Counted from the first letter of the stretch, positions 1 to 47,591 are shown. The stretch: 47,591 nt of DNA from a virus (IMGVR_UViG_3300045988_142058); one strand, 5' to 3'. Notes: generated by a model not told the origin, from the sequence alone. A program made the numbers and translations.

Positions 1-1517
1 GAGGTTGTCACGTACTTGTTATCGCCTGAGACATCAACTGACTTTGTTGCAGCAATTGATGCCATATTAATAGCCGAAGTTTGCCCAACCAGAGAATCGT
101 TGCAGACAAACTTTCCATAGGTAAAACCAAAACTATCCGTCCCGGTTTCGGGAACATCCATATTTGACGATCGCCCCCAACTGGCAGGGCTTTCCGAATT
201 GAGCATGTAGTTCGTTCTTTGCCCCTCAATAAGCAGGCCATCACGTTCAAATCGTGGCTCGTCAATGGCAGCCTCTGTCAGCACACCAGATTTATTTATA
301 TAGGTTGCTTTCGATGCGCGTTTAAACTTTACAACCTTATCGCCAGGCATCGTTATTTCATCATCACCAATAACAATCTTTTTATATGACGGCGAAAACC
401 CCGTAATCATATCCAGTGAATCGTTAAACGGTATCCACACATCAGGTAGCGGTTGAATAATCTTCCGGGCATCCTCCAGTGGCAATGCTTCGATATCCGA
501 GGCTGTTAAAGTAATATCTGACGAACCGTCAAATGAAACGTTGTTAATCTTCCGTGCAGTTTTTAATTTCGTTGCGGTGTCGGCGTTCCCCGTCAGTGCG
601 CCGTTGAGTCCGCCGTTGAAAATCTGGCGTTCACTCCATGTGTTAGCCGTGCTCAACAGGGGGATCTTTTCACCGCTTGTGCCGAGTTCTCTTAAACCAA
701 GGTACTGGATAACAGCAAGGACACTTGTTTTAGCCAGAATATTACGGCCGACTGACGTTAAATCAGCCAGGGCTACTGTGTCTTTACCGGTAAAGTACGG
801 CAATTTATTTGCAGCCGTCGCAAGTCCTGCCAGAGCGGTGAGCGTATCATCTGCTGGTTGTTTTTGCTTTGCTAGGTCAAACACTTCTTTGACGGCTTTT
901 GGCGTTGCAGCGCGCGTTTCAGAAGTACTGTTAGTGTCACTACTGAGTTGAACAATGCCTTTTGAGGTTAAAGTTGCATCAGGATGATTACGTGATTGCT
1001 CATGTTTTACAATGGCTTGCTTAAGTCGCTTTGCTGAAACAGCTAGGGAATCATCTGTACCTGCATCAATTTCTTGTTCATTAGCAAATCTTGCTACTCC
1101 AACAACAGTTTCGGTTGCGGGCGGGTTAATAAACTCAACATCACCAAATGTAATGTTTTTAGTATCAAGATTTTTAATTGCTATATCACTTGATATTAAA
1201 GCAATTGTAGAAGATGCTTTATTTATTATTACTTGTTCTTGCGAGTATACAGCAAACAATGTTCCTTTATTTGTATACAAACCTATTGTATGGACAACAT
1301 ACTCATCTTTACTATCATCCTTCGCAGTTACATGAATGGTATCAGGAGAAACGACTTTGCCTCCTATTGTGGTAAGTCGCTTTATTTCATCTGTTATTTC
1401 TGTTTGTGTGGTTGATGTGACATAATATCTACTACCTAAACCAACAGAAACGATCTCAACTTTATTTGTTCCAGTCTTGTTGGCATTAACCAGCTCCTGA
1501 CGCCCGGCGTCAGTCAT
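1..1517 (-). CDS. Tail fibre protein, N-terminal ~505 codons; gene continues across the circular junction into 46668..47591
   Basis: Minus frame open from ATG at 1517 (possible GTG at 1538 with AAGGA RBS) to position 1; absent from ORF track because no stop in window. Manual translation MTDAGRQELVNANKTG... contains fibre-type repeat [27 protein letters not shown]. Confidence 0.7.
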   Translation of the reverse strand, partial: MTDAGRQELVNANKTGTNKVEIVSVGLGSRYYVTSTTQTEITDEIKRLTTIGGKVVSPDTIHVTAKDDSKDEYVVHTIGLYTNKGTLFAVYSQEQVIINKASSTIALISSDIAIKNLDTKNITFGDVEFINPPATETVVGVARFANEQEIDAGTDDSLAVSAKRLKQAIVKHEQSRNHPDATLTSKGIVQLSSDTNSTSETRAATPKAVKEVFDLAKQKQPADDTLTALAGLATAANKLPYFTGKDTVALADLTSVGRNILAKTSVLAVIQYLGLRELGTSGEKIPLLSTANTWSERQIFNGGLNGALTGNADTATKLKTARKINNVSFDGSSDITLTASDIEALPLEDARKIIQPLPDVWIPFNDSLDMITGFSPSYKKIVIGDDEITMPGDKVVKFKRASKATYINKSGVLTEAAIDEPRFERDGLLIEGQRTNYMLNSESPASWGRSSNMDVPETGTDSFGFTYGKFVCNDSLVGQTSAINMASIAATKSVDVSGDNKYVTT

Positions 1518-1568
1518 CGTAAATAATAATTTACTCACGCTTAATTCCTTGAATTAACAAATCGCAAA

Positions 1569-4665: not shown

Positions 4666-4667
4666 AA

Positions 4668-5669: not shown

Positions 5670-5877
5670 TATTGCGTCTCCACGGAGGCAAATTGTTTAC
5701 TGATATTGGCATAACCGGAGCATCAGGAACTTTAAGAATAATTCCCGCAGAAAAAAGCACCGTGAAGCGGTGCTCAGTATTAGCATCAATAAGAAGATAA
5801 GACAGGTACTCATTACCATACAACTTTAACGCGATACTATCCCATGAGTCCCCTTGAACCGTTCTATAATCATCCAA
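5659..5877 (-). CDS. Tail protein X-like (LysM-like fold)
   Basis: 72 aa; YRTVQGDSWDSIALKLYG motif resembles P2 gpX/LysM; directly after tape measure. Confidence 0.45.
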   Translation of the reverse strand: MDDYRTVQGDSWDSIALKLYGNEYLSYLLIDANTEHRFTVLFSAGIILKVPDAPVMPISVNNLPPWRRNSVT

Positions 5878-8662
5878 AACTTAATCTCCGTTGTTGGAAC
5901 ATATGAGCACTCAATTTCTTCTCAAAATCAGAATATCCAGCATCTAATGCTCTTTTAGCTGCCGCCTCAGTTTCCTTTGGTGAACCAGCCGGAAGATTGA
6001 TTACAGGTGAATAGGTTATTCCACCAGTCACAGCGTTAACGTTCTGGCGAGGTCCAGAAGTCCCGGCGGCAGATATCCCGTGAGGTGATAAATTTGATTG
6101 CCCGAACTTGGTTGCTATTGCATTTTGTAAGCTGTTATTCCTGCTAACACCTGATGCCAGAGTAGTCATTATTGCACCACCTGACTTTGTTAGCTGTGAG
6201 AATGGACCTTTTTTCGCGTCAGAGAACGGTAAATACTCACGTACAGAAGAAAAAACGCCTTTCACTTCATTAATTAAAGCATTTGCTTTTGATTTTATCC
6301 CAGTGATTAACGTCTCAATTATTTTTGCACCTGACTCACTCCAGTTTATTCCAGATAAATAAGCCGTTACAGATTGGAATGCTCTTATAAAGAGTCCAAC
6401 TGGTGAAAAACGCATAAAAACAGATACCAGTGTATCTATGATTTTCTTTCCTGTTTCGCTCCAGTTAATGCCAGAAAGGTAATTTGTTGTAAGTTTAAAT
6501 GCTTTAATTAAGAACGGAAGCGGAGACATCCATTTAAAAGCACTAATTAATGTACTGTAAATTCTTACTCCTGCCGAACTCCAGTTTATGTTGGAAAGAT
6601 AATCCCATGCTTTACCAAACATAGATATAATCCATCCATTGAGGTCAAAGTTTAAGATAAAGTTTTTTATAGCCTCAAATGATTTAACTGTATATTCCTT
6701 AACAGAAGGCCAAACTCTGACAGCATAATCTCTGATCTTATCCCAATTCTGATAGAGCAATATTCCTGCGGCAACCAGTGCAGATATAGCCATCTGAATC
6801 CACCCGAAGGGTGTTAGCTTTGTCGCTACAGATAAAGCCAGCATAGCTACCCTACACGCTATAACCACACTTTTCATGGTTAGAAACGCACCTGCCGCCA
6901 TCACAATCTGAGACACAAAATTGGGGTTGTTAGCTACAAATTCACTAATTTTTGTAATCAGCGGAACCAAAACACTAAGCGCGGCATTCAAAGCTGGTTG
7001 CAAGGCCTGACCAAAACTTAATGATGCATTGCTAGCCTGAATACGTAATTGTTTCAATCGCTCCGCATTGTCTTTCGTTATATTGGCAAAATCGCGGTCA
7101 ATAACAGCACTTCCAGCCCCAAGAGATGTTGCTTTGATTCTCTGGTATTCCTTCCAGTTTTGAATCATCGGACGAACAAAGTTCTGAACCTGCATATCGC
7201 CAAATAGCTCACCAAGTAACTTCTGATCTCCGTTCTTAGTCATTTTCATGACAGAATGCATTGCAGCTTCGAATGGATTCTTCCCTTTTTTCTGCGCTGT
7301 TGTGACAATTTTATATAAATCTACACCGAAATTTTTCTTTGCTTTTTTTAGTGTTTCAGGGGAAAGTATTTTCGCCAAAAAGTTGTTCATATTATTAGCA
7401 GCCTCATCCGAAGTTGCAGCACCTTTGCGAGCTATCTGCAAAGCTGCCCCCATCGTCGCGGCGGCTTCTTTACCTCCCATTTTTAATGCCTGGAACTGAG
7501 CACCAAGCACAGGAAGATTTTTGGCCATATCTTTAAATTCAAAGTTTCCCTCTTTCCCTGCCTGAACCAGAATCCCCATTGCAGACTTCATTTGAGATGG
7601 ATCAATCTTCAATGAGTCACTTAATGTAAATGATGCTTTCGAGACATCGAGGATATCAGAGCCAGTAGCTGTAGCTGTTCGCCCAATAGTTAGTAGATTC
7701 GCCTGAGCCTCTTTATAATCCTGCCCAGCAGCGACGAGAAAACCCTGAGCGGCCTGAATATCAGATGCAAACTGGTTGGTGGCCGTTCCGGTAACAAGCA
7801 TCGCCTGCCCCATCGCCTGAACTTCTTCCGGCTTCATATCTGCCGTAAGACCAATCATTTTGTTTTCACGATTGAAATTTGCTGCATTGTTAGCAGCAGC
7901 AAATGCACCAGCCGCTACAGCACCAGTTTGTAATCCTGACCTTACAAGTTGACTCTTTGCCTCACCAAGATGCTCTCGCTTCAATTCACGCTGCCTTTCC
8001 AACGCGCGGTTTAACTCCTCCTGAGCACGTTTTACTGCAAGAACATTTTTCCGTGCTTCAGCCAACGCATTTTTATAGCTGTTAATTTTATCAATACGTT
8101 GTTTTTCTAATGCCCGGTTAAGTTCCTCCTGCTGTTTTTTCACTTGCTGAACATTTGCTCTGGCTAAAGCCAAAGCTGTTCTGTAGCGGTTAACCTGCTC
8201 AACGCTACGGGCCTGAGCCTCACGATTACGATCAATGCTTGCTTTAAGCTCTTTCTCTCTTGAGGCCAAAGCTCTGGCAGATGTATCAGCTCCCTGATAC
8301 GCAGACTTTAAAGCGGCCAGTTCTTCACGCTGAGAACGTAGTGATGCTCGTAAATTTGATGAATGTGTTTTTGCCTTCTCAAAGTCACGAAGCATCGCTC
8401 TGGTTGGATTGGCCGTGTTTTTTATTTGCTTCTGTAACTCTTCAACGCGAGCGGCAGCTTTATGATATTCGAGGGCAGTCTGTCCAACCTTTACTTTTAC
8501 AGATTGTAGCTTTTGAATTTCCCCATGTTCTTTCGTTAATCCAGCAAGCTCGGCATTTAATTTAGCAACAGCCTGATTAGCTGTAGTAAAACTTTTGGGG
8601 AGAGAGGCGGCAACTTTGCCGCCAATTTCAAAAGCCAGCTTAAAGTTCTTATTGCTGGCCAT
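5870..8662 (-). CDS. Tail tape measure protein
   Basis: 930 aa; coiled-coil N-terminal third with repeated QQVKKQQEELNRALE segments, hydrophobic middle, repeated W-rich C-terminal motifs; follows chaperone pair. Confidence 0.8.
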   Translation of the reverse strand: MASNKNFKLAFEIGGKVAASLPKSFTTANQAVAKLNAELAGLTKEHGEIQKLQSVKVKVGQTALEYHKAAARVEELQKQIKNTANPTRAMLRDFEKAKTHSSNLRASLRSQREELAALKSAYQGADTSARALASREKELKASIDRNREAQARSVEQVNRYRTALALARANVQQVKKQQEELNRALEKQRIDKINSYKNALAEARKNVLAVKRAQEELNRALERQRELKREHLGEAKSQLVRSGLQTGAVAAGAFAAANNAANFNRENKMIGLTADMKPEEVQAMGQAMLVTGTATNQFASDIQAAQGFLVAAGQDYKEAQANLLTIGRTATATGSDILDVSKASFTLSDSLKIDPSQMKSAMGILVQAGKEGNFEFKDMAKNLPVLGAQFQALKMGGKEAAATMGAALQIARKGAATSDEAANNMNNFLAKILSPETLKKAKKNFGVDLYKIVTTAQKKGKNPFEAAMHSVMKMTKNGDQKLLGELFGDMQVQNFVRPMIQNWKEYQRIKATSLGAGSAVIDRDFANITKDNAERLKQLRIQASNASLSFGQALQPALNAALSVLVPLITKISEFVANNPNFVSQIVMAAGAFLTMKSVVIACRVAMLALSVATKLTPFGWIQMAISALVAAGILLYQNWDKIRDYAVRVWPSVKEYTVKSFEAIKNFILNFDLNGWIISMFGKAWDYLSNINWSSAGVRIYSTLISAFKWMSPLPFLIKAFKLTTNYLSGINWSETGKKIIDTLVSVFMRFSPVGLFIRAFQSVTAYLSGINWSESGAKIIETLITGIKSKANALINEVKGVFSSVREYLPFSDAKKGPFSQLTKSGGAIMTTLASGVSRNNSLQNAIATKFGQSNLSPHGISAAGTSGPRQNVNAVTGGITYSPVINLPAGSPKETEAAAKRALDAGYSDFEKKLSAHMFQQRRLSFG

Positions 8663-8667
8663 TAGTA

Positions 8668-8850
8668 TTAATCCTCATTAAACACGTCAATCCATGCGAC
8701 GATTCGCCTCAACCGAAGCGAAAGCCAGTAGGATATAGGTGTTGATTGAGATGATTGAGATAGAGAACTCGCGGCCCTCATTATTTGCTTATCAATAGGT
8801 TTTTGCTCATCAAAACCTACGAGAGCAAAAAATTCTGTACCTTTTGGCAA
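8668..8850 (-). CDS. Frameshift extension of tail assembly chaperone (E'-like, -1 frame)
   Basis: -1 frame ORF overlapping 3' end of 8817..9098; reading FFALVG... after slip at heptamer 8826..8832. Confidence 0.5.
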   Translation of the reverse strand: MPKGTEFFALVGFDEQKPIDKQIMRAASSLSQSSQSTPISYWLSLRLRRIVAWIDVFNED

Positions 8851-9098
8851 ACTTTAACAAAGTCTTTCGCTGGCAATCCATTCAGATACTCTATCGGACG
8901 GCCAATACAGCGAGCAGCCAGAGCAACGTGGACTTTATGATCAAGTGATGTTTGAACTGTAACATGCCCTTGAGATTGTAGTAAGTCCGATACTTCTAAA
9001 ATATCGCTGCCTTTTAGGTTGTCTAAATCAAGGTTGAGTTCAGTCACCGGCTCGAAGTCTTCAAAACGATACTCTTTACTTAATTTAACGGTTTCCAT
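8817..9098 (-). CDS. Tail assembly chaperone, gpE-like
   Basis: 93 aa between tube and tape measure; ends in slippery T_TTT_TTG. Confidence 0.55.
   Translation of the reverse strand: METVKLSKEYRFEDFEPVTELNLDLDNLKGSDILEVSDLLQSQGHVTVQTSLDHKVHVALAARCIGRPIEYLNGLPAKDFVKVCQKVQNFLLS
8826..8832 (-). other. Putative -1 programmed frameshift slippery heptamer T_TTT_TTG
   Basis: Zero-frame codons aaT TTT TTG two codons before chaperone stop; -1 frame continues 58 codons to 8668. Confidence 0.5.
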
Positions 9099-9107
9099 TT
9101 TGTCACC

Positions 9108-9629
9108 TTATAAACCTAAATCATCACGAACGCTTTTTAATATATCTTCACCATCGAAGATACAAATAAAGTTCAATTTATCAATTTCCAGGACTTCTTT
9201 TCCATCAATAAATAATTTGATATAGAGAACTTCAAATTCATTCTCTGAATCAGTAGCCTTTGCCACCTGTAGCGAACCTAAATCCAGTTTTTTAGGGTTT
9301 AGCTTCATTGAAGCCCGAATGGGAACCGTTTTATATTTTCCTGTTCCGGCATCATAAACCTGCTGGCTACCACGAAAATCTACCTGATGCGATGAGGATA
9401 GAAATAATTTTGTACCAGCAGAGGTTAGGGTTCGCCATTTAAGAGAGACGGTCATTGGTTTGAAATGCCCCAGCGTTCCGCTCTCAAGCTCTCCAGCAAT
9501 ACCTGCACCACTAACTGTCTCTGTCATCATCTCGATTGATGGCAGCTTTGCGTCAGCAACACCGATAATACGGTTTCCCTCACCGTATACTGTAAAGTTA
9601 ATAAGTCTCTCAGGAATTTGATTGCTCAA
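9108..9629 (-). CDS. Tail tube protein
   Basis: 173 aa immediately downstream of sheath gene. Confidence 0.6.
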   Translation of the reverse strand: MSNQIPERLINFTVYGEGNRIIGVADAKLPSIEMMTETVSGAGIAGELESGTLGHFKPMTVSLKWRTLTSAGTKLFLSSSHQVDFRGSQQVYDAGTGKYKTVPIRASMKLNPKKLDLGSLQVAKATDSENEFEVLYIKLFIDGKEVLEIDKLNFICIFDGEDILKSVRDDLGL

Positions 9630-21251: not shown

Positions 21252-22631
21252 CTACTTAATCAACGGCCGGAAAGCCGCCAACACATCATCAGATCGTCCG
21301 ATTGTTGAACCACCAGGCAACGGCAACTCAAACTCAAAACGAACAGCTTTCTCCAGACTCTCCCAGCGAAGAGAATCATCGTTAATAACGTGCAAATACC
21401 AGCTCTTACCGTTAAATACCGACCGCTTTATTCTGAAGCTATGCTCACGGCACAATTGCTTCACTTCCTCATCAGAATGAAACTTCTGATAAAACCAGTG
21501 TCCCTTCCGGTACAAAGCAGAAAAACCGTTATGGTCAATAAAATAAAGCCGGCTTATAGAGCTAGCAGCTTGCGTTCGTTTAAGCACACTCTCCAGCTCT
21601 CCACGACTACGGCCAGAAAAGAATATTGACCCACCAGCTTTACACAGGCCTTTCAGAACCGTCAGAACGGACCATTCAGCCTCGACACTATCGACCGAGT
21701 TCAAAACGCTATCGCAAATCACGTAGTCGTAACGCCCTCGCGTTTTTAAGTCGTCCACCAGCGTATCAATCATTCGGTTTGTTGCAGCCCTATCCAGAGT
21801 GTTTCCAGCGCCCTTACGGCGGAAAAGCTCGAGATCATGCAGGTTATATCCCTTTGCCCTGAGCATTCGCGCGTAGTCTCCCTGCCCCGAACCAAAATCA
21901 ATTCCTCTTGGCGTCTTGGCAATGATCGGGAGGATCAACGACTCATACAGGTTTGATTTCAGGCTGCCACCATTACGCAACCGCATAAGCTGCGCATACG
22001 TCTGGATGTATGTTGTTTTCTCCAGATGAGAATACTCAAATACACCATAAGTTTTATTCAGATAACTTTGGTATTTTTCCTTCTCAACATCAGGGATCAC
22101 AAACACCGTTAGCGGTGTGCGCGTCATCTTCGCTGCTAATGCATACTGAGCACAGTGAATAACCTCACCAGACTGAGTAGCAACACAACCACCCCACGGA
22201 CCATACTTGATAACCAGTTCCGCTATGTTCTTTCGAACATATGCCATTTTCGCGCGCATATTGCCTGAGATCTGGCTTGCCGATACCTGAACAAAACCAT
22301 GCTTATCTTCCAGACCGGACACCCTGCAACGCTCATCTCCGCTATCAAAATCCGTTCCGTTATGCAGTTGGTTAAACCGTACTTCGTCGTATACCGTCGT
22401 TTCACAGGGCAACACATACACCGCAGCACGCGTTATTCCCAACTTACGTAGCGCCTTCGTCCTTTGGTGTCCCGCCACCAGCAAATCGCCGCGCACTATC
22501 AATGGCTTCACAAGCCCCAGCTCCCTGACGCTTTCCGCCAGCCTCGCAAGATCATCCTCACCGATAAAACGCGGGTTATATTCCGCGCCGCGTAGGTGCG
22601 TTATGTCGTAATTCAGGTGAAGCATCAGCAC
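21252..22631 (-). CDS. ParB-domain / SAM-dependent DNA methyltransferase fusion
   Basis: 459 aa; N-terminal ParB-like (LVAGHQRTKA), C-terminal motif I-like IDFGSGQGDYA. Confidence 0.65.
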   Translation of the reverse strand: MLMLHLNYDITHLRGAEYNPRFIGEDDLARLAESVRELGLVKPLIVRGDLLVAGHQRTKALRKLGITRAAVYVLPCETTVYDEVRFNQLHNGTDFDSGDERCRVSGLEDKHGFVQVSASQISGNMRAKMAYVRKNIAELVIKYGPWGGCVATQSGEVIHCAQYALAAKMTRTPLTVFVIPDVEKEKYQSYLNKTYGVFEYSHLEKTTYIQTYAQLMRLRNGGSLKSNLYESLILPIIAKTPRGIDFGSGQGDYARMLRAKGYNLHDLELFRRKGAGNTLDRAATNRMIDTLVDDLKTRGRYDYVICDSVLNSVDSVEAEWSVLTVLKGLCKAGGSIFFSGRSRGELESVLKRTQAASSISRLYFIDHNGFSALYRKGHWFYQKFHSDEEVKQLCREHSFRIKRSVFNGKSWYLHVINDDSLRWESLEKAVRFEFELPLPGGSTIGRSDDVLAAFRPLIK

Positions 22632-25233: not shown

Positions 25234-25821
25234 CTATGACACTTGCCAGAGAGCATCATGCAACTGGATACCTCCATTGCACTGGTTGCCCCAGCCATGC
25301 CAGCCATCAGGTAAATCACCGCGAGCAAACAGCTCAATACGAGGAACATCGCCTAACAGCTTTACCAGCTTGTCACGGACCACATCAGGCTTCCGAGAAT
25401 GCTCCAGACGAGGCGATGTAAACGACTGAATGATTCCCGCATCAAGACGTGTCGGTAGTTTGCCTTTCACTGCAAACAAGCAATCTTCACTGTTTGCACG
25501 AGTCATATGCCCCATCCCCATCACCAGCTTATCTGGTTGTCGGCTACCACATTTGTTCCATGTGAAGCCCTTCATGGTCATCAGCCTGAATCCCCATGCT
25601 TTCACCACCAGCAACGCTTCTTCTGGCTGAGTCGGAACCCACCACATGGCCAACAAACACGATTCAGGATTAGCAAGCTGCCAGACAGGAATACGAGCAA
25701 TATCCTCAGCTTTCATCGTTGGATACTTAAAACCAGCGCCACGATTCCCATCCTTACACTTGTCTTTGTATTCCCAGGGGGGATCTGCATAAATCAGATT
25801 AAACAATGCAATTGCCTCCAT
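25234..25821 (-). CDS. MT-A70 family N6-adenine DNA methyltransferase
   Basis: 195 aa; DPPW motif (LIYADPPWEY). Confidence 0.8.
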   Translation of the reverse strand: MEAIALFNLIYADPPWEYKDKCKDGNRGAGFKYPTMKAEDIARIPVWQLANPESCLLAMWWVPTQPEEALLVVKAWGFRLMTMKGFTWNKCGSRQPDKLVMGMGHMTRANSEDCLFAVKGKLPTRLDAGIIQSFTSPRLEHSRKPDVVRDKLVKLLGDVPRIELFARGDLPDGWHGWGNQCNGGIQLHDALWQVS

Positions 25822-26129: not shown

Positions 26130-26205
26130 TGGTGGCCCCTACCGGATTTGAACCGATGACCGTGCGATTATGAGTCGCCTGCTCTAACCACTGAGCTAAG
26201 GGGCC
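26130..26205 (-). tRNA. tRNA with CAU anticodon, tRNA-Ile2 (lysidine)-like, CCA encoded
   Basis: 76 nt cloverleaf GGCCCCUUAGCUCAGUGGUUAGAGCAGGCGACUCAUAAUCGC...GGUUCAAAUCCGGUAGGGGCCACCA; 7-bp acceptor stem; resembles E. coli ileX from memory; elongator Met not excluded. Confidence 0.8.
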
Positions 26206-34736: not shown

Positions 34737-35393
34737 ATGAAAAGCAACGACGAGAACATCAAGAAAGAAATAGGTCTGCGCATTCAGACTCTACGGAAAC
34801 AATCCGGCATGACTGCCGGAGATCTCCAGCAAGTCACTGGAATAGGCTTAAGCACCTTGCAGAACTATGAGGCCGGATTAAGACAACCATCTATACCTGC
34901 CATCAAGAAAATCGCGCACGCCCTGAAAGCATCAGCGCCTTATATCGCGTGCTTAACAGATAACCCGTTCCCACCCCAGAATACTAACGCTCCTGTTATT
35001 CCTGGGCTTGTAGCTATAAAAAATGACATAGCATCGCACGCCGGAGAAAAGCCAGTGCTGGCGATAGAACAGGAGATTCTACGAAGCAAGAACATCAACC
35101 CATCGTCTCTGTCAGTTCTCCAGAGCAACGATGAGTTAATGTCACCAACAATATCCCCTGGCTCCCAAGTCCTGATTAATACAGACGATACAGAGATTCA
35201 TGAGGGGATCTATGCCCTTGAAGACAGAAATGGCCTGGTTGTTTTGAGGCACTGTAGAGTCATACCGGGTGACAATGCTGTTATGCTGTCAACCGAAAGG
35301 GATGCTGAAATGAACACTAAGCATCTGAATAACGAGGAATTTAAGCGTTATAAAGTTCTGGGCCGCGTAGTTAGTGTTGTCAACTGGTTATGA
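34737..35393 (+). CDS. CI-like repressor (HTH + LexA/S24-like C-terminal domain)
   Basis: 218 aa; N-terminal HTH (LRKQSGMTAGDLQQVTGIGLSTLQNYEAG); C-terminal S24-like fold. Confidence 0.8.
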   Translation: MKSNDENIKKEIGLRIQTLRKQSGMTAGDLQQVTGIGLSTLQNYEAGLRQPSIPAIKKIAHALKASAPYIACLTDNPFPPQNTNAPVIPGLVAIKNDIASHAGEKPVLAIEQEILRSKNINPSSLSVLQSNDELMSPTISPGSQVLINTDDTEIHEGIYALEDRNGLVVLRHCRVIPGDNAVMLSTERDAEMNTKHLNNEEFKRYKVLGRVVSVVNWL

Positions 35394-35884: not shown

Positions 35885-36010
35885 ATATGATTATAGTTTT
35901 ATATAATTATATAAAACGCTTTTCATCCGCCAAAAAGTTGGTTATGCTTACCTCGTTCTATAAATATAGATTTATAGAATTATATAACCAAACACATGGA
36001 GTCTCGACAA

Positions 36011-36664
36011 ATGACTATCTCTGTAGGTATTTTCAACGGAAAAGGCGGCGTAACCAAATCAACAATTGCCCGTGCTTTAGCAGTTGCTTATGCAAAGGCT
36101 GGCTGGAATGTATGCCTGATCGATATGGATGTGCTTAACGGAACGGTAACGCGTTGGGTACAACGCAGAATGGCCAACAATATCGAACCAGCAATCGCGG
36201 CGCAGCCGTGCGGCACACCATCACAAGTCCAGAAAATCATCGAATCAGAAGTATACGACCTGGTTATCGTCGATGGCGGTGCCTACGCATCTGAATCAGT
36301 ACCGAAGCTCTCTGAATTTCTGGATATGGTTATTTTGCCAACCAGATTCTCTACCGATGACCTGGAAACCACCGTTAACACAGCTCATGGCATCGTTAAA
36401 AAGGGTGTGCCAATCAAGAAAATTTGCATGGTGTTCTCAGGCGCGGCTGAAAACGAAGCCGACTACATTGAAGCCCAAGAGTACCTGGCTAATACGCCAT
36501 ACTTTGTTGTCGATAAGTACATTCCCCACAAGCCAGCTCTGAGCAAAGCTCAGGATAAGGGCTTAAGCCTCATTGAGTGCTCATACGTTGCGCCACGCAA
36601 AAAGGCAGACGACGTTATTCAGGGGATTATCAACCAGCTTGAGGCTCTGACTACTGCCGCGTAA
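36011..36664 (+). CDS. parA: ParA-like partition ATPase (small, type Ib-like)
   Basis: Deviant Walker A FNGKGGVTKST; start at second ATG with GGAG RBS. Confidence 0.8.
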   Translation: MTISVGIFNGKGGVTKSTIARALAVAYAKAGWNVCLIDMDVLNGTVTRWVQRRMANNIEPAIAAQPCGTPSQVQKIIESEVYDLVIVDGGAYASESVPKLSEFLDMVILPTRFSTDDLETTVNTAHGIVKKGVPIKKICMVFSGAAENEADYIEAQEYLANTPYFVVDKYIPHKPALSKAQDKGLSLIECSYVAPRKKADDVIQGIINQLEALTTAA

Positions 36665-37178: not shown

Positions 37179-37200
37179 AAAAAAGGCCCCCGAAGGGGCC
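37179..37200 (-). terminator. Intrinsic terminator for small-peptide transcript
   Basis: GGCCCC-cgaa-GGGGCC followed on minus RNA by UUUUUU; 7 nt after peptide stop. Confidence 0.6.
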
Positions 37201-37206
37201 TAATCG

Positions 37207-37329
37207 CTACTTGCTGCTAATGTTTATCGTCACATTCAGAGCGTTATCAGTAATCTTCCAACCCTCCCCATGTGGCGTAAACAAAGCTCCAGTAACAACG
37301 ATAAAAATACACATACAGTATTTTTTCAT
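37207..37329 (-). CDS. Small hydrophobic peptide (40 aa), candidate type I toxin
   Basis: MKKYCMCIFIVVTGALFTPHGEGW...; AAGGG RBS; intrinsic terminator immediately after stop; upstream leader carries 15-nt antisense target. Confidence 0.4.
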   Translation of the reverse strand: MKKYCMCIFIVVTGALFTPHGEGWKITDNALNVTINISSK

Positions 37330-37622
37330 TGTATGGCCCTTACAGGCCGTTTCACGGCATCCCCACCGACGAAAACAACGCGAGAGCAAGCACGGCTGCT
37401 TGTGCTTGCATGTACGGCAACAGGAAATCCTCCCCTAAAGTCGGTGCCCGGGTGCGAATCGGCGGGAAGGTCCACAGGTATTTTACGATTATTTTAAGAT
37501 TAGTAATAGGAAAGAAATTAAACGAAAAAAACAGTTTATTTTCACAAAATCAGTAACCTACCCACAATCTGTGAGTTTGCTGACACAACAAGAACCACAA
37601 TTTTTTGATGTATAATAGTGGA

Positions 37623-37787: not shown

Positions 37788-37900
37788 TGTCTCTGTTAAA
37801 ATCCCGCCGTATTGACATGAATGCGCCATTGGTGGACACTTTCCGAGCCGTAGCAAAATCTACGGTCGGGATTAGCCTCCTGAATAACACGATGGCGCAT

Positions 37901-37921
37901 ACCGCGTTAGCGGTTTTTTTA
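37901..37921 (+). terminator. Second intrinsic terminator in antirepressor leader
   Basis: ACCGC-gtta-GCGGT followed by TTTTTTT. Confidence 0.45.
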
Positions 37922-38082
37922 TGCGTAGAGCACTGTTACGCCCAAATTATGGTGGGTCGTACAGGGGCGGAGAAATCCGCGCCGGTTCGTCATTGTGTCC
38001 GGTAAGGCTAACCCTGTACGGCTCACCACCATTTGATTAGCCTCGAATGGCGGTGATAGTTCCATATACTGGAGATATCACA

Positions 38083-38274
38083 ATGACAAACCTACCCCAT
38101 GACTATTACGTCAACCTCGTAAAGATCCTTCTCAAGAAAGCCTCATACGCCGATAAATTCCGCCTGGCTGAAATCATCGAGCGCGAAGCTATGCGCATCG
38201 CCAGCAACGATAACGCTGTTTCTGACGCAAAAATCTCCCTCGTAACCAAAGTAGTTATGGGAGGTGCAAAATGA
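38083..38274 (+). CDS. Hypothetical small protein upstream of antirepressor
   Basis: 63 aa, GGAGA RBS, stop overlaps antirepressor ATG. Confidence 0.4.
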   Translation: MTNLPHDYYVNLVKILLKKASYADKFRLAEIIEREAMRIASNDNAVSDAKISLVTKVVMGGAK

Positions 38275-39452
38275 AAACGCTTCCGACCGTTAACACCCTA
38301 CAGCCTATCCTGCATAACCAGCTCCCCGTTATCACTACTGAACTACTGGCGCAATTGTATGGAACCGAGCGCCAACGTCTGACAAACAATTTCAATAGAA
38401 ACAAGGAACGTTTTATAGAAGGTAAACACTTTTTTAGGATAGAAGGTAAAGAGTTACGAGAGTTGAAGAACAAAAACTCTTTAAGAGTTCCTGTGAGAGT
38501 AGTTAACGAACCATCTTTAAGAGGGTTACAAATTCCCCCGAAAGTTCGCTCCCTCATCCTCTGGACAGAACGCGGGGCTGCACGTCACGCCAAAATGCTT
38601 GAAACTAACCAAGCGTGGGATGTGTTCGAACGGCTGGAAGACTGCTATTTCAACCAGAACGCACAAACGGCCGCGACCGTTACCGTCTCGCCAAGCAATG
38701 CTCGTGAGGTTGTCGATACGCTCAACGCCAAACCGATGTTTTACATTAAGGTGTGCAATAACGAGCCACTCACAACCTCAGCCGATGTTGCCCAGGCATT
38801 CAGCACCACAAACAATTCCATCGTTATGGCCATCGATGCGTTACGCATTCCTCGCACAGCTGCGGCGCGTCATTTCTTTAAAGAGCAACGACCGTTGGAA
38901 GGAAGCGACCGCGAAATAACAATCTATCGCATGACAAAAGACGGATTTACCTTGCTCATGGAGAGCATCGACGGTCCAAGCGTGAAAGATATCAAGCTGG
39001 CCTACATTGAAGCCTTTAACGCTATCAGCAGCGTGTTAAAAACACAGTACGAGCGTGATCTGGCTAAACGACTGTACCAAGAAAAAACGATTATCCGCGC
39101 GGCAACAGAGCATAATCGGCTATTAACGGAACCGAACTACAGGAAGGAACTAATCAAGGAGTTTGACAAGGCAACAGGGAAAACCAAAGCGGCGCTAAAT
39201 CTGCCAGCAATGACTCAGGAAAATGTGATATCAGCCTTACTTCTTGATCTGCTCAGAAACGCCAGAGCACTTATCAGCTTTGACGAAAACCTGAATCCTC
39301 AGCTCAAGCTACTACCACCGACAGGCAAAGTAGTCGACCAAGCTGATCACAACAGCATACTCAGCGTACTGGATGCAAACCTGCCAGCCAAGACACTACA
39401 GGATCTGATAAAAACATGTGCTGATAAGCTGGCACAGAAAAGCAGACCATAA
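38271..39452 (+). CDS. Antirepressor (ORF6N/ANT N-terminus, Rha-like C-terminus)
   Basis: 393 aa; N-terminal LPVITTELLAQLYGTERQRLTNNFNRNKERF; terminator after stop. Confidence 0.75.
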   Translation: MKTLPTVNTLQPILHNQLPVITTELLAQLYGTERQRLTNNFNRNKERFIEGKHFFRIEGKELRELKNKNSLRVPVRVVNEPSLRGLQIPPKVRSLILWTERGAARHAKMLETNQAWDVFERLEDCYFNQNAQTAATVTVSPSNAREVVDTLNAKPMFYIKVCNNEPLTTSADVAQAFSTTNNSIVMAIDALRIPRTAAARHFFKEQRPLEGSDREITIYRMTKDGFTLLMESIDGPSVKDIKLAYIEAFNAISSVLKTQYERDLAKRLYQEKTIIRAATEHNRLLTEPNYRKELIKEFDKATGKTKAALNLPAMTQENVISALLLDLLRNARALISFDENLNPQLKLLPPTGKVVDQADHNSILSVLDANLPAKTLQDLIKTCADKLAQKSRP

Positions 39453-41563: not shown

Positions 41564-41863
41564 TTAGACATGGAACGCTACTCGCTTTCCTGTAGGAAGC
41601 TCAACATCCAGGCTTAATTTGCCTCCCATAGCTTCAACGTAACGCTTTAATGTCGCCAGCTTTAAATCATTTCCGCGCTGCTCCAGCTTTGTTACTGCTG
41701 GCTGGCTTATACCCATCGCCTCAGCAACCTGTTTTTGTGATAACTGGAGTTCTTCACGCATCATCTGCAAGCCGACCTCAAGAATCATCTCATCTGCCAT
41801 TTCTTTAATTCGCGCCTGGCTTTCAGGTGAACGGCTGGCAATCACCTCATCTAATGTTCTCAT
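41564..41863 (-). CDS. HigA-like antitoxin (XRE HTH)
   Basis: 99 aa; HTH LSQKQVAEAMGISQPAVTKLEQ; downstream of and coupled to toxin gene. Confidence 0.65.
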   Translation of the reverse strand: MRTLDEVIASRSPESQARIKEMADEMILEVGLQMMREELQLSQKQVAEAMGISQPAVTKLEQRGNDLKLATLKRYVEAMGGKLSLDVELPTGKRVAFHV

Positions 41864-42210
41864 TACTTGCTCTCCAGTGTGTTCAGATGTGCTGCAAACT
41901 CATCCTCAGCTATACGCACCAGTTTTTCATAAAACCGTTTATCGTTACTTTTGTCTCCTGCACAAAGAACGATGGCCCGGCGAATCGGATCGAACGCATA
42001 AAAGGCTCTTATCGGACGGCCAGAAAACTGAACGCGAAGCTCTTTCATATTTTTGTACCGAGAACCTTTTACGGTATCGGCATATGGCCTGGGTAACTCA
42101 GGTCCGTAAACCTGTAGCTTTTTCAAATCAGCCAAAACCTTTTCCTGAAGAGCGTCTTCTTGCTCATTTAGCCAGTCGTCAAATCGCTGGCTAAAAAGTA
42201 CCGTCCACAT
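41863..42210 (-). CDS. RelE/HigB-like toxin (phage Gp49-like)
   Basis: Start at ATG 42210 (AGGA RBS); toxin-first gene order. Confidence 0.6.
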   Translation of the reverse strand: MWTVLFSQRFDDWLNEQEDALQEKVLADLKKLQVYGPELPRPYADTVKGSRYKNMKELRVQFSGRPIRAFYAFDPIRRAIVLCAGDKSNDKRFYEKLVRIAEDEFAAHLNTLESK

Positions 42211-42243
42211 GCTCAATCCTATAACCTGTAGTTTATATCACTA

Positions 42244-43674: not shown

Positions 43675-44523
43675 TTAATGTTGGAGTGATTTCCAGGTCT
43701 TTCTTAACCTGTTATAACGCTGCTCAACGAGGGATCGTAAATATGCAAGGTCAGCTCCAGGATACATGCCATCAGCAAATTCCTGGCTAACCTCTCTAGT
43801 GATTTGATGACGAAGTTCGGCCTCTCCCTTTTCCCGAACAAGACGCGCAGCTCTCTCCGCTGCTTTCTGTTTTGCCTTTATCTCTCTGGCCGTCTTCCTC
43901 TGACGCCATACATTCTCCATCTGCTCCTGAATAACAATACGCTTATAATCAGCCTCCGTTATCGCTTTTTTAAGCCGTTCGCTATTCTTCGCATTGAAGT
44001 AATTAAGTTTCTGGCTAACCGCACGTCTCCATGCTTGTTCAGTAATACCAACGGTTTCCAGCAGTTGATCACGAATCTCTATTTTCGCTGGCCAATACTG
44101 TTTATTCACCCGATCCCAGCGACGTTCATAATCAATAAAACCTAACTCTTTCAGTTGCGACAACGCCCTTGTACAGCGCGTTATAGACTTGTTCCCAGCT
44201 TCGGATACGGTAGACAGGCCGCAAAAATCAGCCAACGCCTCAGCACTGGCCAGAACCCGCTTAGAAATGATGTTTACATGGTGCAAAATCGCAGCAATCA
44301 CAGCATTAATTGCCCGACGACGATGCTCGTTTATCCGGCGTTTCCGCTCTGACGGTTGATTAACGTAGAACGCAACCTCACACGTAAGATCACGACCATT
44401 AATGCGCTGTAAAGCATCAGATAACACCAGCGGCAGCTTGTGCGTATGGTGCTTTGGAGGCTGGAACTCCGGCGACAAATTACAAACGTAAGCTGAACGT
44501 AGAGACGGCATTGGTCTATCCAT
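43675..44523 (-). CDS. repA: Replication initiator RepA, IncFII RepA1-like
   Basis: ATG at 44523 (MDRPMPSLRS...); block ...ALADFCGLSTVSEAGNKSITRCTRALSQLKELGFIDY... matches IncFII RepA1 pattern CGL-T-S-AG--SITR-TRAL--L-ELG-I-Y (from memory). Frame open upstream to 44685. Confidence 0.8.
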   Translation of the reverse strand: MDRPMPSLRSAYVCNLSPEFQPPKHHTHKLPLVLSDALQRINGRDLTCEVAFYVNQPSERKRRINEHRRRAINAVIAAILHHVNIISKRVLASAEALADFCGLSTVSEAGNKSITRCTRALSQLKELGFIDYERRWDRVNKQYWPAKIEIRDQLLETVGITEQAWRRAVSQKLNYFNAKNSERLKKAITEADYKRIVIQEQMENVWRQRKTAREIKAKQKAAERAARLVREKGEAELRHQITREVSQEFADGMYPGADLAYLRSLVEQRYNRLRKTWKSLQH

Positions 44524-44535
44524 ATGTTCGCTCTT

Positions 44536-44650
44536 GCGTCCACGGAAAACCAACGTATAATGGGAGTTGTCGAGGCGCCCATGGATATGTTTGTTGGTTT
44601 TCCGTGGATGTCGCAAGAAGCCCGCAGATTTATCTGCGGGCTTTTTGTTT
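44536..44650 (+). ncRNA. Candidate CopA-like antisense RNA in repA leader
   Basis: Plus-strand intrinsic terminator (9-bp stem 44620..44628/44633..44641 + TTTTTGTTT) antisense to repA leader; 16-bp stem-loop 44539..44608. 5' end not defined. Confidence 0.4.
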
Positions 44651-44690
44651 CCATATCTGGTCGTTTTCCAACCAGACACCCACAATCGTA

Positions 44691-44861: not shown

Positions 44862-45389
44862 TTATTCTGGTTTGTCTGGCCATTCGGGGTTTGCTGTGTC
44901 CACGCGGCTGACAAGAACACTGTAGCGTTCCCATGCTTCCAGTCGTGTGCGTTCCTCGTCTGTTGCCATATTCAGCCTGACAGCGCGTTCCAGCGGCTGG
45001 ATGACTGATTCAGCTTCGGAAAGCAATGCGGCCTTTTGTGATTCGGCTTGTTGTTGCTGTTCGTCTGCCGTATAAATCCGTTTAACTACAGCTCCATCCT
45101 TAAACATCCACTTTCCTGAATCATCAGCGCGGCGGTTGGCTGTAATATCAGGAACCTCAACGACGCTAAAACCTTCAGGGTTAAGCGTGGAGGCATCTTT
45201 AGTGATGGCGACAATAATATTATTTGCATCGTAAACAATCTTTATTGTGTCTGGCTGAAAGTTTTTCACTTCCTCATACCAGTTTTTTCCGTCCTCAGAG
45301 TAAAGCCAGATAACTCCGTGTTTCTTTGTTAACTCATACTGTTCCAGTGTTTTAGCGTTACCCGCTTTTATGTTCTTTAAGTGCATCAT
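44862..45389 (-). CDS. Tail fibre assembly protein (Tfa-like)
   Basis: 175 aa after second fibre gene; C-terminal ...[13 protein letters not shown]. Confidence 0.6.
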
Positions 45390-45390
45390 A

Positions 45391-46380
45391 TTAAACGCTC
45401 GCTACATTATACCAGGTGCCATTTATATACTTTTGAACGGGTCTGTAATAAACGCCCGCTATATTATCGGCAGAGTTGGAACCTGTATCCTGAACATTAA
45501 TACCAGACAATACATGACCTGACGGGCACTGGAAATTCCATGTTTGCCAGTTGTTTACTCCATAATATTGCTGTGAACCAAGTCGAACATCTTTCACATA
45601 ACGGGAATCAAAGTTACCGTAATCCGAGGGGTTAACACGCCCTGTAATATTTATGGTTTTATTACTTTGAATGCTGCCGGAGACAAAGCGCATAACATGG
45701 ACGTTATTAGCATAAACGTCCAGATTACCGTCGCCATTTTGTTTAAAGCCCGTGTCATTATCACCCAAAACAATCGAGTTACCGCCAAGAGCACTGGATG
45801 TTCCGATACCCAGTGCACCATTCAATTGACCACCAGATAACGACAGTGCACCGACATCTCCCGCTGTAGGTTTTCGCGTTGTGGTATAAAACTCAGACCA
45901 GTCAGCCTCGAATCCGTAACCGTCACGAGCAGAACGATAAAAAATACCGCCGTTATTATAATTAACGCGGAACTGGGCGGCGGGACAACTTCCTTCACCG
46001 ATATTAAAATGAAGAATTAACGTTGATGCCCCACCAATAGTTGCGTTATAGGCTCCGCTACTCCAGTTCCATCCAACGGCTTTATCATTCGCAACGGTAT
46101 CTCCTGTTTTTCCTGAAGCAAATGCACCAATATTTTTCGGCGTCAGGTTAATATCTGATGTTCCATCAAACGAAACGGAATTAATCTTTCTCGCGGTTTT
46201 CAGCTTTGTAGCCGTTGAGGCATTGCCGGACAGCTCACCAGAAATGCCACCAACAACTGTTAGATCACCAGTTATTGTGCCGCCTGAACTTTCCAGTTTT
46301 TTAGCAACATCACTCTTAATAGAGTCGATTTCTTTTTTCAGATTAGTTATATCTGCTGGTATCGTTGTCACTGTTGCCAT
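45391..46380 (-). CDS. Second tail fibre protein
   Basis: 329 aa; [27 protein letters not shown] shared with first fibre; Gly/Asn-rich distal region. Confidence 0.65.
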
Positions 46381-46389
46381 ATTAATTCC

Positions 46390-46668
46390 TTACGCCCATT
46401 CCCGCAGCGGTTGTTCTAATTTAACTTCAAAACCATCAAACATTTGTTGTTTCAAACTGTCGTTTAAAATACGAACATTAACAAAGAAGCCATCATTTTT
46501 AATCACTGTTGGTTCTTCGTTCTCGCCGTTTGGTATTTCGGTATATGTAATACCTACAACATCAAGAAGGATGTTGTTTTGCAGTTCTTCATTATCGTGC
46601 CAGGATATACTCTCTAAAAAAGAGTCGTATTCTTCCCTGTCTCTGAATTTCAACGTAATATCTTTCAT
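46390..46668 (-). CDS. Hypothetical protein (possible chaperone for first fibre)
   Basis: 92 aa directly after first fibre stop. Confidence 0.35.
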   Translation of the reverse strand: MKDITLKFRDREEYDSFLESISWHDNEELQNNILLDVVGITYTEIPNGENEEPTVIKNDGFFVNVRILNDSLKQQMFDGFEVKLEQPLREWA

Positions 46669-47591
46669 TAAATAACCTCAGCCATTTGTTGGTCTGTTAA
46701 TGCTTTATGCCATATTCTGAAATTCCTGATATGACCAAATAGATGACGTGCCCCTGATGTGGTTTGACCTCCTATTCTAATAAAGGTCCGCGTTTTTACG
46801 CCCGTCCATTCCGTTTCAATGGTTTTAGTAGCCTCACCGTTAGAAACTACTCGTTTAGTACCGTCAGAATAAATATTAAAACCACCAATGAATTTTCGAA
46901 CATCCGTTCGACCAGTAAACAAACTAGAAACGTAACTACTTGTCGACGCTTTATAAGTTTGCATATAAAGCTGACCGTAATATCTCTCGGTTGTGTTAAA
47001 AGCGTATGTGATTGACTCAATAGGCGGCACACCAGAAAAATCAAAAATACGCGGTGCTACATTAGGGGGAATATCGCCCCAATTCCTGTTAACCTCGACC
47101 AAACAAGTAAGCGGTCTGTTATAAATGTTGTTTTCGGTCGGGATCGTAACCATATCACTCGCACGAGTCGCCGCCGTCGTTCCTGATATAATAAAAGATG
47201 ATACACAAGGCCCATTTTCTACTTGTGGGGTGGCCAGATAAATATAGTCACCAGATACGGTTGCCCCGCCCTGCTTAGGAGAATACTGTATCTGAGAACC
47301 TATTTTTAACTCCCCATCAATTGCCTGAATTGTTGCCTCAGCAAAAATCCATCCTGTAGTTTCATCCTTCCTGACTCGTGCCGTAATTCTACCGGAAGCA
47401 CCACCTGTCATATTAATTTCAAGCGTTTGTGTATCAATATACGCATCACCAAGAAAAGTTGTTGCGCTACCGTCATACTTATCAAACCGTATACGTAACC
47501 TTACCTGTCGTTCTGTTTTAAAACGGCATGAGGTTGTCACGTACTTGTTATCGCCTGAGACATCAACTGACTTTGTTGCAGCAATTGATGC
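46668..47591 (-). CDS. Tail fibre protein, C-terminal portion (same gene as 1..1517)
   Basis: Same reading frame as 1..1517 across the 62-bp junction; complete gene ~2379 nt (~792 aa). Confidence 0.7.
   Translation of the reverse strand, partial: ASIAATKSVDVSGDNKYVTTSCRFKTERQVRLRIRFDKYDGSATTFLGDAYIDTQTLEINMTGGASGRITARVRKDETTGWIFAEATIQAIDGELKIGSQIQYSPKQGGATVSGDYIYLATPQVENGPCVSSFIISGTTAATRASDMVTIPTENNIYNRPLTCLVEVNRNWGDIPPNVAPRIFDFSGVPPIESITYAFNTTERYYGQLYMQTYKASTSSYVSSLFTGRTDVRKFIGGFNIYSDGTKRVVSNGEATKTIETEWTGVKTRTFIRIGGQTTSGARHLFGHIRNFRIWHKALTDQQMAEVI
47530..47591. repeat. 62-bp terminal redundancy identical to 1..62 (circular closure)
   Basis: Exact identity of the two window ends. Confidence 0.95.

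Follow-up and report, generated by a model that had tools for sequence, protein, structure and literature searches.

A probable composite tail fibre, and a portable cassette that may join its two parts, in a phage-plasmid with a P2-type baseplate

The tail-fibre locus of the viral DNA IMGVR_UViG_3300045988_142058, an E. coli phage-plasmid (47,591 nt, analysed in full and called the window throughout) holds two fibre genes, a 92-codon open reading frame (ORF) between them and a tail fibre assembly gene (tfa), and we propose that these four genes probably encode one composite tail fibre. The last 62 bases of the window (47530-47591) exactly repeat bases 1-62; the contig is a circularly closed assembly with a true length of 47,529 bp, and features that cross its ends must therefore be joined without the duplicate bases. 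An earlier note made from the sequence alone had placed fibre 1, the 92-residue ORF (orf92), fibre 2 and a Tfa-like gene here, and all four are present; the join of fibre 1 needed a correction of 62 nt, as keeping the duplicated bases (46668..47591 + 1..1517) breaks the frame. The correct join, complement(46668..47529, 1..1517), encodes 792 residues from an ATG at 1517; the near-identical gene in NCBI annotation often begins 7 codons upstream, which yields 799 residues, with a GTG start in the sister plasmid L001. The locus, in gene order on the minus strand, reads as follows.

2143-3267, minus strand: Baseplate_J gene (Pfam), upstream of fibre 1
1569-2150, minus strand: P2-I-like gene, directly upstream of fibre 1
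1..1517, minus strand: 5' part of fibre 1, residues 1-505 plus 2 nt of codon 506 (circular join)
46668..47591, minus strand: 3' part of fibre 1 with its stop codon; bases 47530-47591 duplicate 1-62
47530..47591 (= 1-62), no strand: terminal redundancy of 62 nt, exact overlap
46390..46668, minus strand: orf92, 92 residues, phrog_1361, a family of unknown function
45391..46380, minus strand: fibre 2, 329 residues, homologous to P2-H/Mu-S-type fibres
44862..45389, minus strand: Tfa, tail fibre assembly protein of the P2 G/Mu U type (Pfam Caudo_TAP)
43675-44685, minus strand: IncFII-type repA, after tfa in gene order

The start of orf92 overlaps the stop of fibre 1 by 1 nt (TAATG), orf92 and the ATG of fibre 2 are 9 nt apart, with AAGGA in the gap, and 1 nt lies between fibre 2 and tfa; judged by this spacing, the four genes are packed for translational coupling. 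Promoter-like and terminator-like sites within the locus do not exceed the level found in shuffled sequence, and internal promoters or terminators that would uncouple the genes were rejected on that ground. By Pfam, the window contains only one P2-type I/J wedge set, the one upstream of fibre 1.

Fibre 2 resembles the distal end of a P2-type fibre. Its residues 41-329 are 89.7% identical to residues 630-919 of the Peduovirus H protein, and it matches PDB 8JU3 (Mu S/S', E 6e-54), PDB 5YVQ (E 1.5e-15) and Pfam gp37_C (24.1 bits). The alignment covers only that part of H: fibre 2 is without the ~230-residue N-terminal anchor region, which is found on fibre 1. The gene has its own ATG, an AAGGA ribosome-binding site and a 55-residue leader, and we propose that the protein runs from an N-terminal docking peptide through a short predicted coil and a shaft motif to a receptor-binding tip of the P2-H/Mu-S type. 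Tfa matches Pfam Caudo_TAP (PF02413) with 129 bits against a cutoff of 22.1 (E 1.4e-37) as well as phrog_136, making it and fibre 2 the genuine fibre/chaperone pair that the earlier note had supposed, with Tfa the predicted chaperone of the fibre 2 tip. It is 96% identical to the inverted tfa' of the 48.5-kb plasmid of ATCC 25922 (L003) and 70% identical to the P2-type G protein, and DNA identity to P2 and L-413C is 82-89%.

Fibre 1 combines family-like and P1-like sequence. Residues 1-232 are 90% identical to the single fibre of the sister plasmids CP099184.1 (L002) and L003, and the N-terminal ~230 residues presumably form a family-specific baseplate anchor. A Phage_fiber_2 repeat (Pfam PF03406, 66 bits) occupies residues 182-221, and from residue ~219 on, including a recombinase crossover site described below, the gene matches a P1-like S gene at 80% protein and 89-92% DNA identity. 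The last ~435 residues make up what we call the end-module, which has a sharp left edge at IQPLPDVWIPFND (residue 357) and ends in ...HLFGHxRNFRIWHKxLTD.... Its parts, and the peptide that opens fibre 2, map as follows.

1..449, minus strand: first part of the end-module, residues 357-505 (boundary alignment, identity profiles)
46671..47529, minus strand: second part of the end-module, residues 506-792; the rest of a beta-sandwich (to about residue 629, window 47160), then a LamG-like domain
46752..47126, minus strand: hypervariable allelic patch, fibre 1 residues 641-765, within the LamG-like domain
46333..46380, minus strand: N-terminal peptide of fibre 2, 16 residues, proposed plug

The ~80-residue neck of the end-module (residues 357-440) is its best-conserved part, 77-100% identical across all backbones examined. 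A GTA_spike_fiber-like domain begins at about residue 429 (window 233), the centre of the module matches NCBIfam NF048003, the head-spike-fibre family of the Rhodobacter gene transfer agent (RcGTA), with 52.5 bits against a cutoff of 36 (residues 436-636 of the 799-residue form), and a profile of the module matches PDB 6TB9 (E 1.3e-11); on these matches the centre is homologous to the RcGTA head-spike fibre, a beta-sandwich. For the C-terminal third the Pfam Laminin_G_3 match stays below the gathering threshold (24.0 against 27.6 bits) and covers only residues 725-787, so that LamG-like is a lead, not an assignment. An AlphaFold2 (AF2) monomer model, made on a public protein that differs from the end-module by one residue (P0015), is good only for the central beta-sandwich and poor outside residues ~443-613 (mean predicted local distance difference test score, pLDDT, of 59). 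The neck falls below a pLDDT of 50 in this monomer, as might be expected if this segment needs a partner or the trimeric state in order to fold. Neither fibre 1 nor fibre 2 has a Pfam match to Peptidase_S74 (PF13884).

Within the LamG-like region, residues 641-765 are only 12-52% identical to the sister plasmid L001 although their flanks are 96-100% identical, whereas the same patch is 88-100% identical to the side tail fibre allele of a chromosomal lambdoid prophage. The near-identity with the prophage allele points to allele exchange between plasmid and chromosomal prophages as the source of the variability, rather than to a diversity-generating retroelement, and the pattern, that expected of a receptor-binding surface, suggests that the patch is an exchangeable allele; the end-module itself probably binds a surface glycan. 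More than 3096 homologues of the module were found. Its ratio of nonsynonymous to synonymous substitution rates (dN/dS) is 0.06 against the P1-like copy and 0.14 against the lambdoid copy, and over ~440 residues it is 52-55% identical to the proteins Iris_22 and Kurt_22 (E 3e-158 and 4e-171).

The 92-residue protein is small and acidic and matches phrog_1361 over its full length (E 6e-36). It has no Pfam, NCBIfam or PDB match and no similarity to Tfa, gp38, gp57A or the Peptidase_S74 chaperones. Homologues occur in 197 phage records, and an exhaustive HMMER search of 1.84 billion representatives divided the family into 62 clusters at 50% identity; almost without exception these are free-standing proteins of ~35-150 residues, and three weak matches fall within much larger ones. 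A word-indexed protein search returned only 14 relatives; the alignment of the family found no match in genome contigs, searched with one genome per species, and only 7 loci in viral contigs. Identity to the T5-like and Seuratvirus proteins is 53-62%, dN/dS against the Seuratvirus copy is 0.08 with dS saturated, and AF2 predicts a small alpha/beta fold (pLDDT 84) with no informative structural neighbour.

A constant association links these elements. We define a cassette as the fibre 1 end-module, orf92 and the ~16-residue N-terminal peptide of fibre 2, and examined 16 copies of it, which come from six verified backbones.

48-kb phage-plasmid family of the window (L001, L009): cassette verified
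P1-like plasmids (L004, L005, L008): cassette verified
Chromosomal lambdoid prophage (L016-18): module fused to the lambda-Stf N-terminus, just after gene J
T5-like phages IrisVonRoten, L6jm, VSe12 and mar004NP2 (L006, L012-14, L020): cassette verified
Seuratvirus phages KurtStettler and JenP2 (L007, L010, L011): cassette verified
T1-like phage SECphi27 (L021): cassette verified

In all 16 copies, each of which has an orf92 homologue, the gene before that homologue ends in the same module (...HLFGHxRNxRxWHKxLTD...) and the two genes overlap by 1 or 4 nt; the next gene, after a gap of 9 nt (6 nt as annotated in SECphi27), opens with M-x-T-x-T-x-I-P-x-D-I-T-x-L-K. The fuller consensus of this peptide, M[AVT]T[VKS]T[TVIN]IP[ATDG]DI[TK][NKT]LK, opens the gene after orf92 in every copy examined, and what follows the peptide is unrelated among the copies. 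Outside the six verified backbones, the Dhillonvirus PeterMerian has sequence matches to orf92 and to the peptide that lie ~15 nt apart. The shafts upstream of the module are likewise unrelated between backbones, being coiled coil in the siphoviruses and a beta-structured P1-S shaft here, and so are the distal parts, which may be a Tfa-dependent P2-H-like tip, a self-chaperoning Peptidase_S74 tip or a T-shaped dual-domain fibre. Because both shafts and distal parts differ, the only partners of the N-terminal peptide that are common to all copies are the module and orf92. The P1-like plasmid L005 has the whole unit within an invertible segment, in two inverted copies, which shows the cassette behaving as one piece, as would be expected of one functional unit.

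Some loci carry peculiarities of their own. In L005 (NZ_CP099353.1, from E. marmotae), the invertible segment at 68-8100 with its two complete inverted cassettes also has an IS3 element by the recombinase. An IS3 transposase is also present in CP099184.1, where it breaks up the fibre locus at 8150-9378. In SECphi27, the distal fibre that follows orf92 (4495-5202) is only 235 residues long; after the peptide come a repeated coiled coil and a chaperone domain that cleaves itself, which seems to leave hardly any receptor-binding part.

The place of the cassette within the fibre is marked by a 22-residue shaft motif, ending in (N/S)VSFDG(S/T)SDI, of which the window has two copies.

513..578, minus strand: motif copy 1, fibre 1 residues 314-335
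46150..46215, minus strand: motif copy 2, fibre 2 residues 56-77

The earlier note had pointed to this motif as common to both fibres, and indeed 20 of the 22 residues are identical, within a wider match of 70% over 44 residues that is well above chance (BLASTP E 7e-14 to 1.6e-13, depending on the direction of the query). A single-gene Peduovirus H protein (919 residues, NC_070906.1) is collinear with the fibre 1 shaft plus fibre 2 and has one copy of the motif, at residue 646; in some two hundred E. coli genomes, moreover, P2-type fibre genes match the DNA that encodes the motif. By these comparisons the motif is an ordinary conserved shaft motif of P2-H/P1-S-type fibres, not peculiar to this locus, and it occurs twice here because the cassette was inserted just after it. 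The DNA of the two copies is ~70% identical over ~70 nt and nowhere matches exactly for more than 10 nt, so that they are neither a recent duplication nor a substrate for homologous recombination, and the repeat appears to be maintained at the protein level. These figures also bear on the idea that the copies serve as recombination sites such that a deletion between them would join the shaft of fibre 1 to the tip of fibre 2 and thereby switch the host range. They do lie as direct repeats on either side of the cassette, and double fibre loci that collapse spontaneously to single genes have been reported for phages of the DT57C type (PMC4728585); however, the identity is too low and the exact match too short for efficient RecA-dependent exchange, and no site-specific recombinase for such an exchange was found by tblastn of the window or in a Pfam scan of ten of its other ORFs. 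Homologous recombination between the copies was accordingly rejected, and we find switching of this kind barely credible.

Switching by inversion is the rule at this position in related elements. The family's usual arrangement is fibre - tfa - (inverted tfa' - Sv') - invertase - repA, seen in the ATCC 25922 plasmid, in CP099184.1 and in the isolated myovirus Yersinia phage vB_YpM_41, which matches the window at 99.7% identity along 10 kb of structural genes. The window itself lacks the parts. A tblastn search of it with the Cin/Hin-like recombinase of a sister plasmid gave a best E of 0.14, no inverted repeats beyond short chance matches flank the fibre locus, and Pfam found no recombinase among ten further ORFs, which include genes for partition, repressor, antirepressor, methyltransferase and toxin-antitoxin functions; the earlier note's statement that neither invertase nor inverted repeats are evident thus stands. 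What does remain is a single crossover site.

687..712, minus strand: orphan cix/gix-like crossover site TTATCCAGTACCTTGGTTTAAGAGAA in fibre 1 (encoding ..VIQYLGLRE..)

The P1-like plasmid L005 has two inverted sites around its invertible segment, beside the recombinase, and one of them has the same sequence as this site; the homologue of the site in the ATCC 25922 plasmid falls in the 83-nt inverted repeat of the invertible segment there, which has a gix-like core. No other copy occurs in the window at up to 3 mismatches, and the core AACCNNGGTTT is found nowhere in it. A hidden invertase or second crossover site was therefore rejected on the combined tblastn search, site scan and Pfam annotation of the ten ORFs. 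With no invertase and one unpartnered site, the fibre locus of the window is fixed rather than switchable, and co-expression of both fibre genes is the natural expectation.

The family-like first 232 residues of fibre 1 and its P1-S-like sequence from residue ~219 on indicate that the locus was rebuilt by recombination with a P1-like fibre segment, with loss of the invertase; the portion from mid-fibre 1 onward would have been imported from a P1-like S gene and would have replaced the family's invertible either/or segment. Such a history raises the alternative that fibre 2 and Tfa are a silent leftover Sv'-U' cassette, fixed in the forward direction when the invertase was lost and no part of the virion. 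The sister elements carry such a cassette at this position. That of the ATCC 25922 plasmid, which is inverted, has 93.6% DNA identity to the fibre 2 tip plus tfa, and the alignment of the two sequences picks up again at the final 8 nt of the plasmid's invertase gene; the orphan cix-like site is still present in fibre 1. However, Sv' cassettes have no start codon of their own, whereas fibre 2 and tfa lie on the strand of fibre 1 and fibre 2 has its ATG, AAGGA and 55-residue leader, unlike an inverted start-less alternative cassette; the leader is also conserved among T5-like, T1-like and Seuratvirus phages, which are strictly lytic and show no invertase or inverted cassette at the locus. Further, dN/dS for fibre 2 against the P2-type (Peduovirus) H gene is 0.19 over 289 codons, and together with the values for the module and orf92 this means that none of these genes looks like a relic; purifying selection is evident in each. 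The four-gene layout, finally, is not confined to the window: at least 6 further plasmids have it, as do 20 of the 5426 complete E. coli genomes searched. We judge a silent leftover to be a slim prospect.

Fibre 2 thus has no anchor, and its opening peptide is common to phages with otherwise unlike tails, from which it follows that its partner would be the module and/or orf92; this points to fibre 2 riding on fibre 1. These sequence relations, with the structure predictions, lead us to the composite fibre, a reading we hold to be probable without being assured of it, over two parallel fibres. Fibre 1 would be the proximal part, with its N-terminus anchored to the P2-type baseplate, a P1-S-like shaft and, at its end, the conserved ~80-residue neck, the RcGTA-like beta-sandwich and the LamG-like domain with its hypervariable patch, and it would thus bear a predicted glycan-binding knee domain. 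Fibre 2 would be the distal part, docking onto the end-module by its ~16-residue N-terminal peptide and bearing a P2-H/Mu-S-type tip folded by Tfa. orf92 would belong to the junction, as a structural connector or as a chaperone for the junction or the lectin domain. Four genes on one late transcript with translational coupling would then show two receptor-binding elements at once, and the cassette would be a portable unit between shaft and distal tip, inserted in Tfa-type fibres just after the shaft motif. Of this picture, the gene content, the homologies, the co-occurrence, the lack of switching parts and the purifying selection are shown; the physical docking, the glycan binding and the part played by orf92 are inferred.

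The earlier note had suggested that the two fibres may be expressed together, and here the intact, coupled genes and the lack of inversion switching support it; its implicit picture of two parallel and independent fibres, each on the baseplate with its own chaperone, fared less well. That picture can point to both fibre genes being intact and coupled, to the existence of phages with two fibre sets, and to fibre 2 and Tfa forming a complete tip/chaperone pair, but fibre 2 has no homologue of the anchoring ~230-residue N-terminus and its peptide always follows the module and the 92-residue ORF. Because the peptide is conserved in siphoviruses and myoviruses with unlike baseplates, it is no baseplate-specific anchor; moreover, a single I/J wedge set lies upstream in the window, and orf92, which would have to serve fibre 1, is without similarity to any known fibre chaperone. 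Two independent fibres therefore seem improbable to us.

Some observations tell against the composite fibre. The orf92 homologue and the distal fibre are not among the 8 proteins detected in virions of the T5-like phage mar004NP2, which is a weak negative; the kinship of the fibre 2 tip and tfa with a silent inverted cassette would, by identity alone, allow a relic origin; and the LamG-like region is of low confidence in the AF2 model, its assignment resting on the sub-threshold Pfam match. Co-variation supports the composite fibre only ambiguously. In a comparison of 13 modules, three stretches vary together (r 0.77-0.80): the module's C-terminal 27 residues, orf92 and the peptide that opens fibre 2. 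They are uncoupled from what remains of the module (r 0.25-0.52). This fits a co-adapted junction, but linkage of ~420 adjacent nt would be expected to give the same, and the 13 modules are not independent.

If the composite fibre holds, orf92 would act at the junction as connector or chaperone, the two roles being about equally likely, with a small chance left for some other role. The version in which orf92 is a folding chaperone only, for the lectin-like module or the junction, and is absent from the mature virion is a serious contender to which we give slightly less than an even chance. orf92 is small and acidic, and its position right behind the gene whose product it would help to fold is that of many fibre chaperones; its homologue went undetected in the limited virion proteome of mar004NP2; the published account of the IrisVonRoten fibre model (PMC11990801), in its description of the joint, connects Gp22 with Gp24 and gives the 92-residue Gp23 no role. 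On the other side, orf92 tracks the distal-fibre peptide and the last 27 residues of the module and not the body of the lectin domain: between the window and the lambdoid prophage the modules are 95% identical overall, but the orf92 proteins only 47%. Its lack of likeness to Tfa, gp38, gp57A and the Peptidase_S74 chaperones also argues against a purely chaperoning role.

The closest comparison for the composite fibre is IrisVonRoten (Bas32), whose Gp22 and Gp24 are, by sequence comparison, homologues of fibre 1 and fibre 2. An AlphaFold-Multimer model of that phage has Gp24 attached to the proximal Gp22, an attachment that is predicted rather than measured, and the C-terminus of Gp22 bears a 'galectin-like' domain that protrudes at the junction and that the authors suggest to be an additional receptor-binding domain (Humolli et al. 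2025, PLoS Biol, PMC11990801). The genes for Gp22, Gp23 and Gp24 make up the same cassette, with gene order and the 9-nt spacing behind orf92 unchanged, and identity to the window is 53% over 442 residues for the end-module, 53% for the 92-residue protein and 10/16 for the N-terminal peptide. The surroundings differ: IrisVonRoten is a lytic siphovirus with a T5 Ltf-type anchor, a coiled-coil shaft and a T-shaped dual-domain distal fibre with an intramolecular chaperone, whereas the window encodes a contractile tail with a P2-type baseplate, a P1-S-like shaft and a P2-H-like, Tfa-dependent tip. In another T5-like phage, mar004NP2, mass spectrometry of virions has detected the module-bearing protein (Michniewski et al. 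2019, PMC6563131).

The T5-like phages DT57C and DT571/2 have branched, L-shaped LtfA/LtfB fibres (Golomidova et al. 2016, PMC4728585; Ayala et al. 2023, PMC10713586), and genetic evidence from phages of this type shows that LtfB function needs LtfA (PMC4728585). As proposed here, an anchorless second fibre rides on the first, both have receptor-binding parts, and host range is broader; there, however, LtfB docks to an internal region of LtfA related to phiEco32 gp14/gp15, and both proteins end in Peptidase_S74. DT571/2 matches only residues 27-104 of the T5-like distal fibre and not the N-terminal peptide, and no link between DT57C and the orf92 cassette was found, the DT57C locus itself not having been inspected directly. 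That the window has the DT57C LtfA/LtfB system was rejected, as the docking elements differ, judged by the published description and the match to DT571/2.

The invertible systems of Mu (G, Gin), P1 (C, Cin) and e14 (Pin) are of the type seen at this same locus in the sister plasmids and in vB_YpM_41; fibre 1 keeps the crossover sequence of P1-like plasmids, and the fibre 2 tip and Tfa are like Mu S and U. The window differs in having no invertase, one site, and a second cassette in the same orientation with its own start, which would give simultaneous display. P2 gpH and gpG are related to the distal part, in that the C-terminal portion of fibre 2 corresponds to the last 290 residues of Peduovirus H and Tfa to G, but the P2 fibre is a single polypeptide with one copy of the motif, and in the window the gene is split by the cassette just after that motif. 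The long tail fibre of T4 (gp34-gp35-gp36-gp37) is likewise a multi-protein fibre with a joint, in which the distal N-terminus attaches to the proximal end and a small protein sits at the joint; no sequence similarity to the window was found, and T4 is not known to have a lectin-like domain at the knee.

Multi-protein fibres and a modelled T5-like homologue are thus already known, and near-identical plasmids are public: at least 6 PLSDB plasmids share the layout, end-module proteins with a single residue different are encoded on public 45-49-kb E. coli contigs, and the 20 of 5426 complete genomes cited above contain the junction. In the public records these copies bear no annotation beyond 'phage tail protein' or 'hypothetical protein'. 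The literature searched gave no description of the cassette as a portable unit over at least 6 phage lineages, of orf92 as its constant member, or of its use in place of an invertible segment. A bolder form of the proposal is that the last ~27 residues of the module, orf92 and the ~16-residue peptide constitute a universal, portable fibre-to-fibre coupling, with orf92 a new class of virion joint protein, in at least 6 unrelated coliphage lineages that include siphoviruses and myoviruses, lytic and temperate, and that it here replaces a phase-variable switch with permanent display of a glycan-binding knee and a lipopolysaccharide-binding tip; we offer this tentatively and think it rather doubtful as a whole.

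Were the proposal true, the host range of this phage-plasmid family and of resistance-spreading P1-like plasmids would depend on two elements of one fibre, the lectin patch and the distal tip, each of them exchangeable and the two linked through a standard connector. The connector would be a plug-and-socket for the engineering of phage host range that already works naturally on lambda-, P1-, P2-, T1- and T5-type tails, and one phage family would offer a natural comparison of inversion switching with simultaneous display as routes to a wider host range.

Beyond the fibre locus, the window encodes further functions of a phage-plasmid.

35996-36664: ParA-type partition ATPase
34737-35393: CI-like repressor
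41863-42216: Gp49/HigB-like toxin
21252-22631: ParB-N/methyltransferase fusion
25234-25821: MT-A70 methyltransferase

Beside repA there is a perfect 16-nt inverted repeat (44539-44554 / 44593-44608), just inside or upstream of the repA frame, with a GC-rich hairpin followed by a T-run at 44614-44647; Rfam at its gathering threshold reports nothing at 44539-44647, and the repeat and hairpin may be copy-control antisense RNA elements of the IncFII-type replicon. A tRNA-Met gene lies at 26130-26205 (minus strand) and a full-length ryfA-like small RNA (143 bits) at 37179-37475 (minus strand). Rfam also places an isrK-like RNA and a C4 antisense RNA of the P1/P7 immunity type at 37847-38033 (plus strand), with an ORF6N/Rha-type antirepressor gene directly downstream (38271-39452, plus strand); by these matches, the C4 RNA and antirepressor are a P1-like immunity module on a phage-plasmid with a P2-like tail. 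Isolated virions of the same family exist, namely the Yersinia phages vB_YpM_39/41/44, which are 99-99.7% identical over 10 kb.

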